Positions 11,227 to 58,888 of a stretch of 64,000 nucleotides of DNA are shown piece by piece. A program made the position numbers and the translations under genes. Source of the stretch: an uncultured Rikenellaceae bacterium (GTDB taxonomy: Bacteria > Bacteroidota > Bacteroidia > Bacteroidales > VadinHA17); contig CAZNYS010000005.1 in NCBI GenBank assembly GCA_964577305.1, positions 36,193 to 100,192 on the forward strand, in the 5' to 3' direction. The notes beneath the pieces are model-generated. The model had not been told where the DNA came from and ran no database searches. It was given only the letters and a program-made list of their open reading frames with translations. Positions within the stretch are counted from its first letter, which is position 1; every line of letters starts with the position of its first letter.

Positions 11227-11404
11227 GGGGCTGTCTCATAAGTCCTCTAACTACCCCCTCCTCGACCTTACGGTCGGGATACCCCTCCTTTCAAAAGGAG
11301 GGGAAATGGCTGATATACAATACTATAACTTTCTCCTCCTCTTTAGAGGAGGAGTACCCTGACCGACAGGTCAGGGGGAGGTGGTAGACTTATGAGACAG
11401 CCCC
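11227..11404. repeat. 178-bp nested palindromic element: 18-bp perfect outer stem enclosing four hairpins
   Basis: The outer stem is ggggctgtctcataagtc (11227..11244) pairing with gacttatgagacagcccc (11387..11404). The inner hairpins are at 11263..11276 (cgacc/ggtcg), 11282..11303 (cccctcctt/aaggagggg), 11333..11354 (ctcctcctc/gaggaggag) and 11357..11376 (ccctgacc/ggtcaggg). The element fills the convergent intergenic space. Confidence 0.8.
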
Positions 11405-11417
11405 AATCAAGATGAGA

Positions 11418-41409: not shown

Positions 41410-41672
41410 AACCACTTTTCAGTGGTTTTTGTGATATCTCATGCGGGGCGAATCATTCATAAAGGGCGCGGAAAAATTCATCACCCTTCGATTGTCTTTA
41501 TATGTTATATAACTTCCTTTTCACCCCTGCCGGGGTGTAATGGCTTTAAGGACACCGATTTATCCACAGGTGTGACTGTGGCTATTGCTTTTTACCACCT
41601 CCGGTGGTATTGATAACAAAATAAGCCCCGCGAGGGGCTTAAAAACAATAGCCCAAGTTTCACACCGTGGTT
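41410..41672. repeat. Repeat-family copy A: conserved ~78-nt core plus a unique GC-rich multi-stem 3' domain
   Basis: The core at 41414..41492 matches copy B with 3 mismatches and copy C with 1 mismatch, by manual alignment. Downstream there are nested stems. 41564..41575 pairs with 41660..41670, and 41580..41587 pairs with 41646..41653. A hairpin lies at 41595..41607. A second hairpin at 41623..41640 has a GCGA loop. Confidence 0.8.
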
Positions 41673-44097: not shown

Positions 44098-46869
44098 TTA
44101 AAATCCTAGAGACACCGCTGTATTATCACCTGATACCGTGATATCAGCTATCCAGTTACCATCAATGACTTTATGCATGGTAATTTTCTTTCTGTCAATT
44201 TTCAACTCCGGGATCAGTCCCTGGTAATTCTCCACGTAAATTCTTGTTTTATGAGGTTTTCCGTACCTGTTTTCAATAATAAAGCTAATAGAGTTAAGTT
44301 CCTTATTCACCGAGATAATGTCATCTTTCTTAAACCCATCCCTGTTAAGTTCTACCTGTGCCCTGATATCATCGGTAACCAGTGCAAACCTGTTCCTGAC
44401 ACCGTCTTTGGGTATTATCCTGAATCCTTCACTGTCATGCTCAAGTATTCCTCCGTATGATATCCATCCGAATAGCGGATCATTAGTAAGAACAGTGCGG
44501 ACAGTACGTGTTGTTGCCCCCAGCCCCAGATCTATCTCACCATCATAAAACCAGGCCCCCCTGTCAACTTCCTTCCTTATCCATGCCCTGCCATGCTTGG
44601 ATTCCATAAAAGCCCATCCAACGGCTCCGTCATTTTCTTCCCCGGGGGCCCAGTAACCATAATCAGACTCCGGTGTTCCCGTATTCATAAGCGACCACGA
44701 GCTAAGGTAAGATGCATATCCGAGCTGGAGCCAGTCATTCGGATCATCAGCGAAATGTATACCATAGTCAAGTATTGACCTCCCACCCATCATCGACATA
44801 TAACTGAGGCAATGCATGTCTGAGCTGCTGGTAAAGTCACTCCCCAAAAGGAAATATTTTGTTTCAAGCCATCCTCTTACCGCCAGACCGGCATAGTGCT
44901 GTCGATCCATGAAATCGCGTGCATCAGATCTCCTGACCACAGGATGTGACCGCCAGATCTTTTTATTTCTGTCATACCATGAAGTGGTGTCTGGCTCCAT
45001 CTCATGCAGCGACCCGTACCTGGCAAAGGCATATGATGACTCAAAAGCCGTTCTGTCAATTGCGTACTCCGACCTGAAAGGATACTTGTCATCATATACC
45101 GCATATTTAACCTTCTTCTCATACTCTGCTCTTAACCATTCAGCATCTTCTTCCCGACCTTCTTCCATGAGGTCATTTATCAGTTTTTCAATTACCAGCT
45201 CGTTATAACATCCCCACTTGTATGTATCATAATAAGGTAATATGTCGTAAGGATACCTGAAATATGCTTTTGCTGTCTGATATGCCCTTTCGAGATAACC
45301 GTCGGCATTAAGATAATTAACCTTTTCGGGATACATCTTCGCTATCTGATACATATGATAATATAACATAACAATATGGGGGTAATCATATGACCTCCAC
45401 ACATGCAGTATTTCCTTTCCTGTGGTATCGGGTTCCCTGGGTTTCCACTCCCTTGCCTCTTTCCAGTTAGGCACACCATAAATGCCGTAAGGATAGGGAT
45501 CATCCTTGTCTGTTCTCTGTAATCCATTCCAGACGAAATTCTCAAGGTAATATTCTACAGCCTGTATTTCTTTATCATCAGGATAGTAGACATTCTTTGC
45601 TGCCAGGAATGGCGCTTTACAAAGAGCCGGATCATCACAGGCAAGGACATATCCCCACCAACCATCATAACCGTCTGTGTTGTCAGGACCCCTCAACACA
45701 CTGTTCTTCATATCATAAACTGAGAACAGTCCGTTATACCATTTTGAGGTATCTCTGTGTTGCTGGCTGTTAATAAGGAATGAAGCCCTTTTCTTGAGCA
45801 TTGTTTCAACAGGTTCGGTAGAAAAGAATTCAAGATATGTTTTTGCCCCGCTACCGTAATTAATAGTAAGCATGTTCTCTCCCAGCTTATTAAATTTCAC
45901 CTCATAAATGAAATGATCCGGCTGTTTCTCACCGATAAATCTGATCTCCGTCTTATCCGGAAACTCAGCCGTTATGGATTCAATATCATTTTTCGTATGA
46001 AGCGAAAACTGTGCTTTGAGATCTGAAGGGATGGTCATTCCAGGGACAACGCGTATATCAAACAAACCTTCCTCGTAAAGGATATCACGCATGTCATCCC
46101 AGCTGTCAGCCCACCTGAATCTGAAACCGTATGAAACAGATCCATTCCCGGGAAGCAATTCAATACTGGTATGTTCCTGCCTCCATGTCCCGCTCCCGAC
46201 TGCATTACCGGATACTGCTGAACAGATATAAGCATTGTACTGACGGTTACTGTTGTCAAAATATTCAAGTTTGGTTCCTTCTTTTGGTAATACCATTATA
46301 AAAGGCCCCTCCCCTGATGGCCTGGTAAAATACAGAAATGAACCATATCCTGAAATGTAGTGATGTTTTGTGAAACACCGTTCAAAAATATATTCAGGTT
46401 CTTCCCCTGATGGTCTTCTCCAGGGCAGACCTAATGCAAGATCACCTATTGTTACAGGCTGGTCCAATCCCGTTGAAATTATTATATCAAGGTCTATTGC
46501 GTCCTTGTGGAGCTTGTAGACCTGTTTCATCCTGAGACTGTTTTTATTTGATGCAAGGACGGTAACTTCAGTTTTGTCTCCTGTAATTAACCGTGTACTG
46601 TCATGATGGAAATCAATCCAGCCGCTGTCACCTGTCTTGTAGATAAGCCTTGATACTCCCCATGGCCTGTTCCTTATTACATCGGCAAGATATGGATCGG
46701 CCGGATCGGTGAGGGAAATAATCCCGTAACTTGAAATCTCGCCTTTAACTTCATTATTCTCAAGTATAAAGCTTTTTTCCTGCCCGGATACCGGAACTAA
46801 GAGAGATAATACCAGATTCACCAAAAAAAGTGTCTGGATAAACCGGAAAAGGTGTTTGATTTTTTTCAT
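44098..46869 (-). CDS. Large (923 aa) secreted protein of unknown function, candidate glycan-active enzyme
   Basis: Signal peptide. Long blocks shared with 48892..51618, e.g. TYLEFFSTEPVET, VLRGPDNTDG, DRTAFESSYAF. No catalytic motif I can name. Confidence 0.7.
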   Translation of the reverse strand: MKKIKHLFRFIQTLFLVNLVLSLLVPVSGQEKSFILENNEVKGEISSYGIISLTDPADPYLADVIRNRPWGVSRLIYKTGDSGWIDFHHDSTRLITGDKTEVTVLASNKNSLRMKQVYKLHKDAIDLDIIISTGLDQPVTIGDLALGLPWRRPSGEEPEYIFERCFTKHHYISGYGSFLYFTRPSGEGPFIMVLPKEGTKLEYFDNSNRQYNAYICSAVSGNAVGSGTWRQEHTSIELLPGNGSVSYGFRFRWADSWDDMRDILYEEGLFDIRVVPGMTIPSDLKAQFSLHTKNDIESITAEFPDKTEIRFIGEKQPDHFIYEVKFNKLGENMLTINYGSGAKTYLEFFSTEPVETMLKKRASFLINSQQHRDTSKWYNGLFSVYDMKNSVLRGPDNTDGYDGWWGYVLACDDPALCKAPFLAAKNVYYPDDKEIQAVEYYLENFVWNGLQRTDKDDPYPYGIYGVPNWKEAREWKPREPDTTGKEILHVWRSYDYPHIVMLYYHMYQIAKMYPEKVNYLNADGYLERAYQTAKAYFRYPYDILPYYDTYKWGCYNELVIEKLINDLMEEGREEDAEWLRAEYEKKVKYAVYDDKYPFRSEYAIDRTAFESSYAFARYGSLHEMEPDTTSWYDRNKKIWRSHPVVRRSDARDFMDRQHYAGLAVRGWLETKYFLLGSDFTSSSDMHCLSYMSMMGGRSILDYGIHFADDPNDWLQLGYASYLSSWSLMNTGTPESDYGYWAPGEENDGAVGWAFMESKHGRAWIRKEVDRGAWFYDGEIDLGLGATTRTVRTVLTNDPLFGWISYGGILEHDSEGFRIIPKDGVRNRFALVTDDIRAQVELNRDGFKKDDIISVNKELNSISFIIENRYGKPHKTRIYVENYQGLIPELKIDRKKITMHKVIDGNWIADITVSGDNTAVSLGF

Positions 46870-55436: not shown

Positions 55437-55825
55437 GTCACACATCATTAGTAGACAGGTGGCATTCAGCACCCCTTTTCAGTGGTTTTTGTGATATTAT
55501 AGTCGAGATAAACCATCTCAAAAGGGCCTGGAAAATACAGCACCCTTCGACTCTTCGGACCTTCACTCTGTGTAGGTCCTCAGGCTCAGGGACCCCTGGT
55601 CTGTGTAAATATTTTTGTTCCGTGCCAGTTTAAAGTTGCATCGCTGCCAAATAACCTCGTCCCTCTTTTAGATTAACGATTTTAGGTATATTCTTCCACT
55701 CATGCAGGTTAGGTCCACCAGCCAAAGGTCCCTGAGCTAAACGGGTAATAAAGTCAACCCATTGCATAAAGCCATAAAACTACAAGTAGCCAGTCAGAGC
55801 GGTAACTAATAGTCGAAGGGTGAGG
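55437..55825. repeat. Repeat-family copy D: diverged core, IR-bracketed segment inverted relative to copy B, 12-bp long-range stem
   Basis: The core lies at 55470..55552. IR-L is ctcagggacc (55585..55594) and IR-R is ggtccctgag (55727..55736). cacccttcgact (55541..55552) is perfectly complementary to agtcgaagggtg (55811..55822). Confidence 0.8.
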
Positions 55826-55937
55826 CTATTTGAGATAAATAATAATGATTTTTACAATCACTATTAATCCCACAGTTTATTAATGGAGCCATTCGCGTTA
55901 ATTCGTCCTAATCAGCGCTAATTCGTGTAACCTGGAA

Positions 55938-56051
55938 TTACCTCGGCCTCCGGCCTTCGAAAAACTCAGTTACCCAATCGTCATGTTTGTTGTCTTTCTG
56001 GCGGTAGCTGATGAAGATGTCGTAATTGTATCCTTCGATTATACTTGCCAT
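55938..56051 (-). pseudogene. Orphan 5' fragment of a TIR-domain gene (37 codons then stop)
   Basis: Manual translation gives MASIIEGYNYDIFISYRQKDNKHDDWVTEFFEGRRPR*. The intact gene at 55394 begins MASLIPGYEYDIFVSYRQKDNKHDGWVTRFVNN. The fragment's ATG lies 3 nt after the stop of the upstream TPR gene. Confidence 0.7.
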
Positions 56052-56054
56052 TTT

Positions 56055-57965
56055 TTATTCGCTTTTCTGATCGGCAACAGCCTTTTTTGCTGCTTCGAGA
56101 TGAAGGAATGCTTCATGGTTATAAATCGCATTTCCCATTCTTAAGTCCCAGCTCTTTTGCAGAATATCATGAGCTTCCTGGTATTTACCCTGCTTATAAA
56201 GTCCCCAGCCTTTTGTATCCAGGTAGAGATAATTGTCAGGGCTTAATTCCAGAGCCTTTTCAATGAGTTCCAGGCCTTCCTTTATATTCAGGTCATTATC
56301 TATCAGTAAATATGCAAAATCATTTATTATCAATGGATTTTCAGGCTCCAGCGAGAGGGCCTGGTGGTAATATTCTTCCGCTTCATCAAATAGTCCGGCA
56401 TCCCAATATACGCTCCCCAGGTCTGAAGCTATATCTGCATCAGATGCCGAATTTTCTTTAAGGGCAGAAATATATTTCTCAATATATTCATCTGCTGCCC
56501 TGGTTTTTCCTGTGCTCAATGCCAGGATAGTCTGCCTGTTAAGAAGAAGAGGATCACCGGGGAAATCCTTTTCTGCTCTTTTGTATAGTTTCTTTTCTCT
56601 TCTGTACTCTCCGGTTTCATGATATGCTATTCCAAGCTCGGTATAGCTATAAATCCATGGAGGTTTAACGCCTACTTTATCATAAAGTTCAATAGTTTTT
56701 TCAAATTCAGGGATTGCTTTATCATATTGATCTAATTTATTGTAGCAATAACCCAGGATATATTGGTACATCGGTGATTGTTCATCAATCTTAAGTGCCT
56801 GTTTAATGTGCTTGATCTCTTCTTCGGTCGTTTCAAAATAATTGGCATATAACCAATCTGTCATAATCTTCAGACGAATCGGCATCAAATCTCTTTTCCT
56901 GTAAATCCGCAGGCACCACTTTTTTGCCTCTTCATATAATCCCTGGTTTCCATATGAGATTGCAATCCACCCTTCAGCAGCGGTAAAATTTGAGTCTGCT
57001 TCCAATGCTTGCTGGTACCAGTTCCTCGCTGTCGGATAATTCCTTTCGTGGAAAGCTTGATTACCATAAATAAAATACCTGTATGCTCCAGGATTATTTG
57101 AAACGGAATAATTCCTGAATTCAACAGGCAACTCGCTTACTAATTTATTTATTATAAGAAAATCCCTAACCTCTCTTTTAAGGGAATCAATTACCTGAAA
57201 GATCATCTCTTCCCTGGCTTGTCCGTTAATTTCAAAAGATTTAAAAATCTCCTCTGTCTTTGAATCAACTAATTGAGCATTTACACGAATTGTTCCACCT
57301 GCCTGTTTAATAGTGCCGTAAATAAAAATATTTGCTTCAAGTTTCTGTGAGATATTACTGGCTATAGAAGGTGTGATTGAAGCATAATTAACAAGATCTT
57401 TGCCCTGTAGAAGATTGTTTATTGTTTCTGTTTGCCTGACTTTCAATTCTTCAGAGTTTGTTAAAGATGTTATTAATTCATTTTGAATACCCTCCTGCCA
57501 GACATTCCAGGTTGTATCATTAGTCATATTCTGAAATGGCATTACAGCAATCGAAATTTTACCTTTCGACCTGAGTTGCTCCAAATTATCACGCTTGAAT
57601 ATTTTTGGATAGACAAGAATAATTACTGCAATTAGCAAAACAGCTATAATGATGTCACTTACCTTCAGTTTCCTTTGAGCTGGTTTTGAAACTGCTTCTT
57701 TCTCCCTGTTAACCTTCGCCGGCTTTGTTTTCTGGATACCCTTTGGTGTGACATCAAATATCCAGCTGAAGATTACTGCAAACGGAAATCCAATTATCAG
57801 CAACACAATAATCATAGTTGGAGTCCAGTCGGGCAGATTCAACGGCTCAACAATGTTGTTACTGAGCTCAATGATCACATAGGCAGCTGCCGCGTACATT
57901 GCTATTACACGGAAGACTTTTCGCCTTTTCAGTTCCTGCCAGAAGTTATGAGGTTTTTCAGGCAT
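56055..57965 (-). CDS. Transmembrane TolB-N-like + TPR repeat protein (paralog of the TIR protein's sensor half, no TIR)
   Basis: N-terminal FWQELKRRKVFRVIAMYAAAAYVIIE membrane module; ISIAVMPFQNMTNDTTWNVWQEG; TPR repeats to the C-terminus. Confidence 0.75.
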   Translation of the reverse strand: MPEKPHNFWQELKRRKVFRVIAMYAAAAYVIIELSNNIVEPLNLPDWTPTMIIVLLIIGFPFAVIFSWIFDVTPKGIQKTKPAKVNREKEAVSKPAQRKLKVSDIIIAVLLIAVIILVYPKIFKRDNLEQLRSKGKISIAVMPFQNMTNDTTWNVWQEGIQNELITSLTNSEELKVRQTETINNLLQGKDLVNYASITPSIASNISQKLEANIFIYGTIKQAGGTIRVNAQLVDSKTEEIFKSFEINGQAREEMIFQVIDSLKREVRDFLIINKLVSELPVEFRNYSVSNNPGAYRYFIYGNQAFHERNYPTARNWYQQALEADSNFTAAEGWIAISYGNQGLYEEAKKWCLRIYRKRDLMPIRLKIMTDWLYANYFETTEEEIKHIKQALKIDEQSPMYQYILGYCYNKLDQYDKAIPEFEKTIELYDKVGVKPPWIYSYTELGIAYHETGEYRREKKLYKRAEKDFPGDPLLLNRQTILALSTGKTRAADEYIEKYISALKENSASDADIASDLGSVYWDAGLFDEAEEYYHQALSLEPENPLIINDFAYLLIDNDLNIKEGLELIEKALELSPDNYLYLDTKGWGLYKQGKYQEAHDILQKSWDLRMGNAIYNHEAFLHLEAAKKAVADQKSE

Positions 57966-58023
57966 TTTATGTTGGATTGGATATGTAAATATAAATCAAG
58001 CAATTATCAAAGTCAAATAAAAA

Positions 58024-58090
58024 GCCACCCATCAATTAAGACAGGTGGCATTCAGCCCCCCTTTTCAGTGGTTTTTGTGATATTATATCA
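58024..58090. repeat. Repeat-family copy E (shortest: hairpin + first ~25 nt of core)
   Basis: gccacccatcaattaagacaggtggcattcagccccccttttcagtggtttttgtgatattat shares the hairpin and the 5' core with copies C and D. Confidence 0.7.
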
Positions 58091-58210
58091 TAAGAGGAAC
58101 CCTTACATGGAACTAAGTATAATGTCCACCTGTCCAATACCTATAGTAAACGGACGGACGGACAACTGAGACTTGTATATCCTCTATCCATGATAGCAGG
58201 ATTTTAGTAA

Positions 58211-58239
58211 ATAAAAATCACCTGTCAGGTTACAGGTGA
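58211..58239 (-). terminator. Intrinsic terminator after the TPR gene fragment
   Basis: Minus strand: tcacctgt aacctg acaggtga followed by tttttattt. Confidence 0.65.
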
Positions 58240-58271
58240 CTCTTGTATTTAAAATATGTTAGTTGTTGCAT

Positions 58272-58724
58272 TTAATGTTCGCTTTTGGGGTTAGCAACAG
58301 CCTTTTTTGCTTCTTCTAGGTGGAGATCTAATTCGTAGAAATATATAGGTTTTAAAGAATCAGCTTTCACAAGGAATTTAAGTGCTTCTATATATTTGCC
58401 CTGCTTGAATAATCCCCAGCCTTTGGTGTCAAGATAAATGTAATTATCAGGTTGGCTTTCAAGAGCCCTATTTATAAGCTCCATTCCTTCATCGATATTC
58501 CTTTCATTATCGATCAGGAAATAAGCCAGTCTACTATACCTGCCTGGCTTTTCAGGTTCTAATGTGAGAGCTTTACGATAATATTCCTCTGCTTTATCAA
58601 GATTACCTGCCTCAGAATAAATTCTTGCAAGGTTTGACGCAATGTTGGCCTCAGGTATAGAATTTTCTATTTGGATAGATTTATATTTTTCAATATATTC
58701 ATTTTTACCTCCTGTTTTACACAA
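58272..58724 (-). pseudogene. 5'-truncated TPR paralog (matches only the C-terminal ~140 aa of 56055..57965)
   Basis: EYIEKY...AEEYYRKALTLEPE...DNYIYLDTKGWGLFKQGKY...LEEAKKAVANPKSE is colinear with EYIEKY...AEEYYHQALSLEPE...DNYLYLDTKGWGLYKQGKY...LEAAKKAVADQKSE. There is no membrane or N-terminal part. Confidence 0.65.
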
Positions 58725-58888
58725 TCAAAAATACTTAAAAGTGTCTAAGAGGGTCTGACGTGTCTACAAAGTAGATGAATTTAAGCAGATTTAAATATAT
58801 AATTATTTATTTTTAAATTATAAGCAGGGAAAAAGCTAATCAGTTCATCTCCTGCTCAACCTGAGGTTCATAATTCCTTTCCCCCCTG

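Follow-up and report, generated by a model that had tools for sequence, protein, structure and literature searches.

A 5′ stub of a TIR-like gene behind a membrane TPR gene: a probable relic of gene loss in a Bacteroidales multigene family

An intact gene for a 636-residue membrane TPR protein lies within the window, the whole 64,000-nt stretch of DNA from an uncultured Bacteroidales species that was analysed here. Three nucleotides past the TAA of this gene, an ATG at position 56051 opens a reading frame of only 37 codons, whose first 31 codons resemble the start of a second, intact gene encoding a protein of 796 residues. The start of that gene, at 55394, lies 657 nt beyond the ATG of the stub, and all features at the locus are on the minus strand (Table 1). 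How did the stub arise, and does it still take part in anything? An initial annotation of this DNA had noted its start 3 nt past the TPR stop and its homology to the first 31 codons of the 796-aa gene, both of which the sequence confirmed, and had read the arrangement as a broken TPR/TIR tandem at a recombination hot spot or cassette-exchange system. Our analysis indicates that the stub is most probably a gene relic, left when a TIR-like gene was lost from a TPR/TIR tandem of a family that evolves by birth and death.

Table 1. Features of the locus, in window coordinates
Feature	Position	Strand	Description	Source
796-aa gene, intact	53004..55394	-	First 90 nt are the second copy of the direct repeat	
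Tail module of repeat D	55423..55540	-	118 nt	Repeat families D1-D3, alignments
MITE-like inverted-repeat element, core of repeat copy D	55541..55822	-	282 nt	
43-nt AT-rich motif	55889..55931	-	GTTACACGAATTAGCGCTGATTAGGACGAATTAACGCGAATGG; contains the near-palindrome AATTAGCGCTGATT	
Stub ORF	55938..56051	-	37 codons plus stop; encodes MASIIEGYNYDIFISYRQKDNKHDDWVTEFFEGRRPR*	ORF list, sequence
GC-rich tandem heptamer	55941..55955	-	GGCCGGA GGCCGAG G, run ggccggaggccgagg; lies where gene homology stops	
Codons 32-37 of the stub		-	Unrelated read-through in GC-rich sequence	
Relic part of the stub	55959-56051	-	Codons 1-31; 5′ end of a TIR-like gene	
Low-divergence tract versus L092	55987..56365	-	6 mismatches in 378 nt, 98.4% identical	
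AAA spacer between TPR TAA and stub ATG	56052..56054	-	Conserved junction of the old tandem; same TAAAAAATG in L092	
Membrane TPR gene, 636 aa, intact	56055..57965 (stop included)	-	Upstream partner of the former tandem	ORF list
Repeat copy E, tail-only	58006..58088	-	Intact terminator-like hairpin at 58024-58049	
5′-truncated TPR paralog	58272..58724	-	C-terminal 150 residues, from about codon 487 of the 636-aa gene onward	

The stub and the ancestral TPR/TIR tandem

The stub peptide matches about 90 family genes in related genomes, with E-values down to 1e-16, and has no Pfam match on its own. A repeat finder recovered its relationship to the 796-aa ORF as a direct repeat (55305-55397 versus 55962-56054) that is 80% identical over 93 nt and spans codons 1-31 of either ORF as well as the three bases before them. 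The repeats reported in the initial annotation are therefore real, but had been described as about 75% identical over about 85 nt. According to tblastn, the window contains only these two TIR-type 5′ ends. The stub retains 31 residues of a TIR-like domain that normally has roughly 200; it would be unable to make a functional domain and would at most be translated by coupling into a 37-residue peptide without a role.

Homology ends abruptly after codon 31. In local alignments against 80 family genes, the following 42 nt scored within the range of shuffled controls, 67 of 200 shuffles being as good. A frameshifted 'VEALKAELESTF', tried as a continuation of the homology, was rejected on the same grounds, its alignment score lying within the shuffles. 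The GC-rich stretch at this point, initially taken for a quasi-palindrome at 55943-55957, proved to be a tandem heptamer two positions away (Table 1); the TCGAAGG that precedes it appears to resemble a widespread GC-rich repeat motif.

The closest available relative is L092, a metagenome contig of 4,481 bp from JGI sample 3300011118. Its protein P0002 was the sole homolog of the 636-aa protein at 86% identity in a protein search, and the two TPR orthologs share 86% of their protein and 89% of their DNA sequence. In L092, the TPR gene is followed by TAA-AAA-ATG and then by an ORF that stays open for at least 734 codons, up to the end of the contig. This ORF starts with MASIIEGYNYDIFISYRQKDNK, has a TIR-like N-terminal domain and encodes PEGA and FGE-sulfatase-like domains further on. 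The same junction with a full-length gene behind it confirms the ancestral TPR/TIR tandem that the initial annotation had inferred, and supplies the intact arrangement that it had expected from a comparison of synteny. The intact tandem was found in this one relative, whose contig ends before the 3′ end of the gene; the more distant TPR homologs in L013, L093 and L095 (68-71% identical) have no TIR-like gene downstream.

What became of the rest of the lost gene? A tblastn search of the window with the L092 TIR-like protein returned the stub, at a level well above chance (80% over 35 residues, E = 2e-12), and otherwise just the paralogous domain in the 796-aa gene; no remnant of the PEGA/FGE body was present anywhere in the window. 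Given that there is also no homology past codon 31, the gene body was lost outright rather than split by an insertion. The stub thus has what is expected of a gene relic or truncated pseudogene, namely partial homology, an abrupt end and an intact ortholog in the same place in a relative. In the course of events that we favor, the ancestor carried the 636-aa TPR gene, TAA-AAA and a full-length gene encoding a cytoplasmic TIR-like domain, a membrane segment, and PEGA and FGE-sulfatase-like domains. The window lineage then lost everything 3′ of codon 31, probably through a non-homologous deletion or replacement, which left the 93-nt relic next to the heptamer duplication, the 43-nt motif, the 282-nt MITE-like element, the 118-nt tail and the 796-aa paralog.

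The designation of the N-terminal domain as TIR-like is based on its predicted fold, and sequence models did not recognize it as TIR. No Pfam TIR family matched at E ≤ 0.01, the NCBIfam model 'TIR-like protein FxsC' scored 18.6 bits against a cut-off of 130, and a profile built from 30 family members found no TIR match among PDB sequences. In contrast, an AlphaFold2 model of residues 1-205 of the 796-aa protein (57 homologs; pLDDT 87.6, pTM 0.87) had RUN1, TcpB/BtpA, RPP1, MyD88, SARM1 and TIR-APAZ as its top Foldseek matches in the PDB, with E-values of 1.6e-4 to about 2e-3 and TM-scores of 0.5-0.6 on the target; flavodoxin-like flavoproteins came next. The predicted domain thus appears to adopt the flavodoxin-like TIR fold. 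It carries a DIFISY strand-A motif and an invariant W-x-x-E, and E96 in the motif AWEHEF is invariant among the 57 homologs. Bacterial TIR proteins such as TcpB/BtpA, the Thoeris protein ThsB and the SPARTA TIR-APAZ share with this family the predicted fold of the N-terminal 205 residues, DIFISY and W-x-x-E. They differ from it in that the domain described here has no Pfam TIR match and no significant sequence match to a solved TIR structure, and is fused to a transmembrane segment and a periplasmic TolB_N-like/TPR (or PEGA/FGE) part. In some homologs a class-3 cyclase domain takes the place of the TIR-like module, and the 636-aa gene has the same body as the 796-aa gene without that module. 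A literature search on this TIR/TPR family in Bacteroidetes found nothing specific.

The downstream paralog and the intergenic DNA

An alternative reading makes the stub and the 796-aa gene two halves of a single TIR-like gene, into codon 31 of which a mobile repeat D was inserted together with a spare promoter and a spare 5′ end. The 564 nt between the repeats (55398-55961) would be such an insert, flanked by direct repeats as with gene-end elements that carry a replacement copy, and the TIR-like domain of the 796-aa protein is indeed 86% identical to that of the L092 gene, more than for any other family member in the comparison. The synonymous sites tell otherwise. Divergence at four-fold sites is 0.54 between the 796-aa gene and the L092 gene (0.71-0.82 in the first 80 codons), about three times the 0.19 between the flanking TPR orthologs. 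The C-terminal architectures also differ, PEGA plus FGE-sulfatase in the L092 gene versus TolB_N-like plus TPR in the 796-aa gene. Together, the four-fold-site divergence and the different architecture identify the 796-aa gene as a paralog of the lost gene, and the two-halves interpretation was rejected on the synonymous divergence. In addition, the N-terminal subtype differs between the two 5′ ends (MASIIEGYNY versus MASLIPGYEY), both subtypes being widespread in the family, and no integrase is found nearby. An insertion of repeat D into one gene, which the initial annotation had offered as one way of breaking the tandem, is accordingly highly improbable.

The 796-aa protein comprises the TIR-like N-terminal domain, a transmembrane segment, a TolB_N/CsgG-like region and TPR repeats. 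As a separate observation, its closest homolog is P0122 (71%), encoded on a contig with only 49 nt of upstream sequence.

Between the relic and this paralog, the DNA is composed of several recognizable modules. The stub does not end exactly where repeat D begins, as initially described: D starts at 55822, about 135 nt past the end of the homology. The first module after the heptamer is the 43-nt AT-rich motif, which recurs in another species (L094) as two collinear exact 15-mers (2201-2215 and 2229-2243), located upstream, at a distance of about 240 nt, of a family gene that encodes a 680-aa TPR paralog. An AT-rich spacer separates the motif from the inverted-repeat element that forms the core of D. 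This element has outer arms of 12 nt (CACCCTTCGACT and AGTCGAAGGGTG) and inner arms of about 22 nt (GCTCAGGGACCTTTGGCTGGTGG and CCAGGGGTCCCTGAGC). Its only ORF, of 45 aa (55630-55767), has no homolog or Pfam match on record. The 546-nt intergenic region that contains the core (55395-55940) has a folding z-score of -5.7.

The tail follows the core and stops 28 nt short of the ATG that opens the 796-aa gene. It contains the most conserved core of the repeat family, ATATCACAAAAACCACTGAAAAGGGG, and a decayed terminator-like hairpin with a T-run. Tails stand alone at 41410-41491, 52820-52968 and 58006-58088 of the window, and together with the inverted-repeat unit at 51699-52000. Tail and MITE-like unit are also present upstream of the TPR gene in L092 and at a paralogous locus, L159. 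The recurrence of the 43-nt motif, the MITE-like unit and the tail upstream of family genes demonstrates that the stub is fused to the ordinary upstream DNA of the next family gene. We do not claim the tail as a small-RNA gene: promoter-like sites were not above chance (26 versus 21.7 expected), including TTGAGA-16-TAATAT at 55521-55494, and the consensus hairpin of the tail showed no covariation. Rfam gave no match in the whole window at gathering thresholds and only chance-level matches in 51500-58800 at E ≤ 5, and the window contains no tRNA genes.

How widespread is the inverted-repeat unit? A blastn comparison of repeat copies A-E with 79 related loci returned two weak matches only and made the element seem lineage-specific, an impression that a later profile search corrected by finding more. 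With nhmmer, copies of the D core were detected as copy B in the window (51699-52000) and in many metagenome contigs, among them L159, L111, L132, L203, L092, L178, L185, L188, L190 (three copies), L198 and L214. Many other metagenome contigs carry the unit without the tail. Relative to the tail, it points one way in B/L203 and the other way in D/L092, which weakens the idea that D is a single structured RNA. The unit fits a MITE-like DNA element better, as it combines terminal inverted repeats, small size, an absence of coding capacity and many dispersed copies in either orientation; no target-site duplication was noticed in its flanks as read in the alignments.

In this respect D resembles MITEs and REP-type repeats such as Correia, RUP, BOX and ERIC, which are likewise small, non-coding and multicopy, have long terminal inverted repeats, occur in both orientations, lie in intergenic regions beside promoters or terminators and are associated with rearrangement breakpoints. 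It differs in two respects. The arms of D derive from a GC-rich motif, GGTCCCTGAG...TCGAAGGGTG, and 24-nt tandem arrays of these arm 10-mers are also seen in organisms that are unrelated and even rich in GC, on contigs with 36-75% GC that come from unrelated habitats. Moreover, the unit is coupled in this lineage to the conserved 118-nt tail with its terminator-like hairpin.

Recombination and population structure

Comparison with L092 provides evidence for recombination within the stub. Overall, the two TPR genes diverge by about 11%, but a low-divergence tract (Table 1), which includes an identical run of 230 nt, covers approximately the last 100 TPR codons, the junction and codons 1-21 of the stub. 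In these 21 codons 1 of 63 bases differs; over codons 1-22 the protein sequences agree completely (100%) and the DNA sequences at 97%. The next 26 nt, starting at 55986, already contain 8 mismatches, and beyond them homology is gone. Codons 23-31 (HDDWVTEFF versus GDRWVSEFV in L092) differ at 9 of 27 bases, above the level of the flanks, and this excess marks the stub as a mosaic with a history of more than one event. The tract is probably the trace of a recent recombination between lineages that ended inside the 5′ segment of the stub, and the conserved 5′ segment would therefore remain a substrate for ordinary homologous recombination.

Relative to L092, the locus is broken on both sides of the TPR gene, at 55959 and at 58078-58088. 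At the latter position, inside repeat copy E, homology to both L092 and the L159 locus ends, so that the gene has a breakpoint on this flank as well. The gene itself encodes an N-terminal transmembrane segment, a CsgG/FlgO/TolB_N-like region and TPR repeats (Pfam TPR families, CsgG and FlgO; NCBIfam TolB at a low score). Further upstream lies the 5′-truncated TPR paralog described in the initial annotation. It is real, encodes 150 aa, matches the 636-aa gene at 71% (repeat families D4 and D6) and has a terminator hairpin of its own at 58218-58239.

Does the species still rearrange this locus? Look-ups with two proteins covered 18 and 24 contigs, and 12 contigs, each from a different metagenome sample, were fetched and aligned. 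All 12 run collinearly through 55395-56054 as one block, at 99.83-100% identity. The 796-aa protein has one single sequence on 24 contigs; hybrids of the two 5′ repeats were therefore not among the sampled sequences, as the first residues of a hybrid would differ. The same data bear on the possibility that a metagenome assembler misjoined the stub and D at the repeat. Repeats of this region do break, and possibly misjoin, assemblies elsewhere, but the identical 55395-56054 sequence from 12 different samples, and 5′ repeats that at 80% identity are too divergent for k-mer collapse, make an assembly artefact exceedingly unlikely.

We also consider it unlikely that the locus is an active hot spot or cassette-exchange system, as the initial annotation proposed, in which the TIR 5′ segment and the tail/MITE modules serve as portable arms and genes are exchanged, lost or duplicated at an appreciable rate. 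Such a system would account for the breaks on both sides of the TPR gene, the repeat modules at gene boundaries, the end of the 98.4%-identical tract within the stub and the recurrence of 5′ stubs in relatives. It is at odds with the invariance of the stub-D-gene structure and of the 796-aa protein in the contigs described above, with 5′ repeats that are direct and only 80% identical, and with the scattered end points of the relatives' stubs (codons 19-40). Among the genes called within about 10 kb, none has a recombinase or transposase family on record; the products encoded from 43000 to beyond 64000 belong only to trp-operon, permease, amidohydrolase, TPR, Fib_succ_major, DUF5695, GH39 and peptidase S9 families. 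The more specific suggestion that the tandem broke through recombination between the paralogous 5′ ends fails on its expected product, which would be one hybrid gene and not a stub followed by D. What remains of the hot-spot idea is turnover at the level of the family.

The only alternative arrangement lies upstream of the TPR gene. In L007 and L009, homology to the window stops at 58078, within tail copy E, and beyond this junction come a tRNA, a complete repeat element and a PfkB gene, i.e. the 5′ part of the L159 paralog locus joined to this TPR gene. The L159 locus coexists with a window-type contig in one sample, and the point at which L159-like sequence gives way to window-like sequence lies within 146 nt that are identical in both paralogs. 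L007 and L009 could thus represent either a real recombinant strain, as an exchange system would produce, or an assembly chimera. No reciprocal product of this type of junction was seen among the contigs with the amidohydrolase gene, and some other assemblies simply end at the repeat.

Comparison with known exchange systems points the same way. The Bacteroides shufflons and other invertible clusters, such as those behind SusC/SusD phase variation, share with this locus a conserved 5′ segment repeated among paralogous envelope genes in Bacteroidota. They rely, however, on inverted repeats, a dedicated tyrosine recombinase and the presence of both orientations in one population, whereas here the repeats are direct, no recombinase was found and the assembled contigs hold one arrangement only. 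The orphan modules of Rhs/CDI polymorphic toxins are similar in that fragments lie downstream of a full-length family gene and share a short conserved segment for exchange. Those fragments are 3′ (C-terminal) cassettes with an immunity gene that can be recombined onto the main gene; in contrast, the fragment here is a 5′ end without a coding body, and no exchange was seen in the population.

Turnover of the family in related Bacteroidales

A scan of one genome per species turned up relatives of the TPR gene at 79 loci, every one of them from uncultured Bacteroidales or Bacteroidota. These loci contain 96 TIR-type starts, often in tight tandem arrays. Open frames of at least 700 codons follow 70 of the 96 starts, and early stops about 20; some of the latter come from MAGs with several frameshifted family genes and may be assembly errors. 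True 5′ stubs number eight, with homology ending at codons 19-40 and usually beside an unrelated gene, and this scatter of end points argues against a defined crossover or recombination site. Counts of 5′-only versus 3′-only fragments from chained tblastn matches were unreliable, as the divergent TPR region breaks the chains. The survey shows that the locus belongs to a birth-and-death multigene family of sediment Bacteroidales, in which tandem arrays, pseudogenes and 5′ stubs are common.

The stubs of the relatives also help to judge whether the short ORF could be functional, acting as a leader or regulatory peptide coupled to the TPR gene, or keeping ribosomes on the mRNA up to D. The ATG and the frame are intact, TAA-AAA-ATG is conserved with L092, and in the relatives the stub is often followed on the same strand by a gene within 100-300 nt. 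On the other hand, the recombination tract accounts for the conserved state of codons 1-21, the sequence of codons 32-37 is unrelated, the peptide has no family match, and the stubs of the relatives have degraded starts, in-frame stops and different lengths. We therefore regard a function as very doubtful, and return to the stub as a relic. Like other gene relics in bacterial birth-and-death families, it is a short 5′ fragment that matches intact paralogs and occupies the place of an intact gene in a relative, and frameshifted and truncated copies abound in its family. It differs from such relics in nothing essential; its start and frame are intact, and its first 21 codons have been refreshed by the recent recombination tract.

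As a routine relic, the stub matters little alone. It records that one uncultured Bacteroidales species lost a gene recently, and annotations should neither list it as a gene nor include it among TIR proteins. Its context is moderately interesting. The family is very large and arranged in tandem arrays, with fast birth and death, mosaic recombination tracts and repeated 5′ stubs; in each member, a signalling module in the cytoplasm (TIR-like, or in homologs a cyclase) is combined with a membrane segment and with a periplasmic sensor made of TolB_N-like and TPR parts. The intergenic MITE-like element is undescribed, and its GC-rich motif occurs across very different bacteria. The receptor family and the element are leads for studies of receptor families and small mobile repeats, neither being established as a new mechanism.

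The survey further suggests that the TIR-type 5′ end is a frequent site of small insertions and of deletion end points, a pattern to which detection bias may contribute. One could extend this to a scheme in which the conserved 5′ segment of about 90 nt and the tail/MITE modules serve both as portable homology arms and as targets for insertion, driving a rapid, selected turnover of envelope sensors shaped like Toll-like receptors, and in which GC-rich palindromic elements that land at codons ~11-31 open a recurrent route of switching a gene off and then deleting it. We consider this scheme improbable; the cases that would illustrate it, besides the window, are L076, L051 and L091. Two tandem genes of L076 carry a 45-nt GC-rich hairpin element in-frame at codon 23, and the same element is found at the end of the stub in L051. 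In L091, a 20-nt perfect palindrome lies within a 24-nt insertion after codon 11.

Modular TIR-like proteins and a mosaic tract at the stub

The intact 796-aa TIR-like gene and its homologs share a body composed of a transmembrane (TM) segment, a TolB_N-like region and TPR repeats, and this body carries a TIR-like N-terminal module, a class-3 adenylate/guanylate cyclase (PF00211) or no N-terminal module at all (see table). Body and N-terminal module together give a Toll-like-receptor-like topology, in which a single TM segment links a repeat sensor in the periplasm to a signalling domain in the cytoplasm. Several paralogs with the TM, TolB_N-like and TPR body can occur per genome, often as tandem arrays.

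At the truncated TIR-like stub, comparison with the closest available relative (contig L092) revealed a tract of low divergence: window 56365-55987 and L092 1964-2342 differ at only 6 positions in 378 nt, and outside this tract the two lineages are ~11% different. Its upstream border is a very divergent patch, with 15 differences in 52 nt (56418 to 56367). We read the 378 nt as a mosaic recombination tract, one end of which lies inside the stub.

Composite repeats and a duplicated tRNA end

The repeat family is composite, consisting of an inverted-repeat (MITE-like) unit of 150-175 nt, found in both orientations, that is joined to a tail of ~110 nt. The most conserved part is the tail core, ATATCACAAAAACCACTGAAAAGGGG, and the tail ends in most cases in a 10-bp hairpin and a T-run; it may act as a terminator module or encode a small RNA. 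Spurious ORFs arise from the element, such as MNFSAPFMNDSPRMR...

In L007, a contig joining a part resembling the paralogous locus L159 to the window's TPR gene, we noted a tRNA gene with a putative GTT anticodon (read by eye) and, ~130 nt past it, a direct repeat of the tRNA 3' end (GTCCTTCCTGGGGAGC), a duplication that resembles an old integration scar. Immediately beyond it comes a complete composite element, and the arrangement recurs in L009, a contig of the same kind, and in L159.

A further intergenic repeat (window 11227-11406) shows 89% identity to L007 4359-4499 and ~80% identity to two copies in contig L111 (3588-3795, 4618-4824).

Coordinates of the features compared (L, other contigs or related loci; P, homologous proteins)
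Feature	Locus	Position	Remarks
Proteins compared for modular N-terminus	window	53004-55394	homologs P0198, P0204, P0216, P0218, P0222, P0224, P0238
tRNA gene and direct repeat of its 3' end	L007	6690-6900	also L009, L159; read by eye
TIR-like 5' stubs	L057	1064 (+), 3623 (-)	
Hairpin element sites	L076	650, 3154	
Hairpin element site	L051	1963	
Hairpin element site	L091	13354	
Composite repeat	window	41410-41491, 51699-52000, 52820-52968, 55423-55822, 58006-58088	
Composite repeat	L159	8947-9289	
Composite repeat	L092	1-323	
Composite repeat	L111	5504-5829	
Composite repeat	L132	5389-5735	
Composite repeat	L203	2015-2334	
DUF5695 genes	window	44537-46131, 49588-51176	923 aa and 908 aa; opposite strands

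Hairpin insertions, a 24-nt unit and a gene duplication

TIR-like genes of other Bacteroidales carry insertions of small, GC-rich hairpin elements within their first 25 codons. The L076 element (GGGAGACAAGGAGCC..GGGGCGACG.AGTCCCGCGAAGCGGGA) lies in-frame in two tandem TIR-like genes, and the same element is present at the truncation point of the L051 stub; the L091 insertion, 24 nt long and placed after codon 11, includes a perfect palindrome of 20 nt. The two L057 stubs are oriented toward each other, ~2.5 kb apart, and downstream of each lies an unrelated gene whose start resembles a signal peptide.

In the metagenome scan (L096-L215), the arm motifs GGTCCCTGAG and TCGAAGGGTG of the inverted-repeat element each proved to be one half of a 24-nt unit, GGTCCCTGAGCTTGTCGAAGGGTG, a repeat termed near-universal here and of which we know no description. 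Among the matches listed, tandem arrays of this unit come from soil, freshwater, marine and gut samples, in contigs with GC contents of 36-75%.

The DUF5695 genes share ~65% DNA identity across 1.6 kb and lie on opposite strands, and therefore form a diverged inverted duplication; a GH39 gene sits between them.
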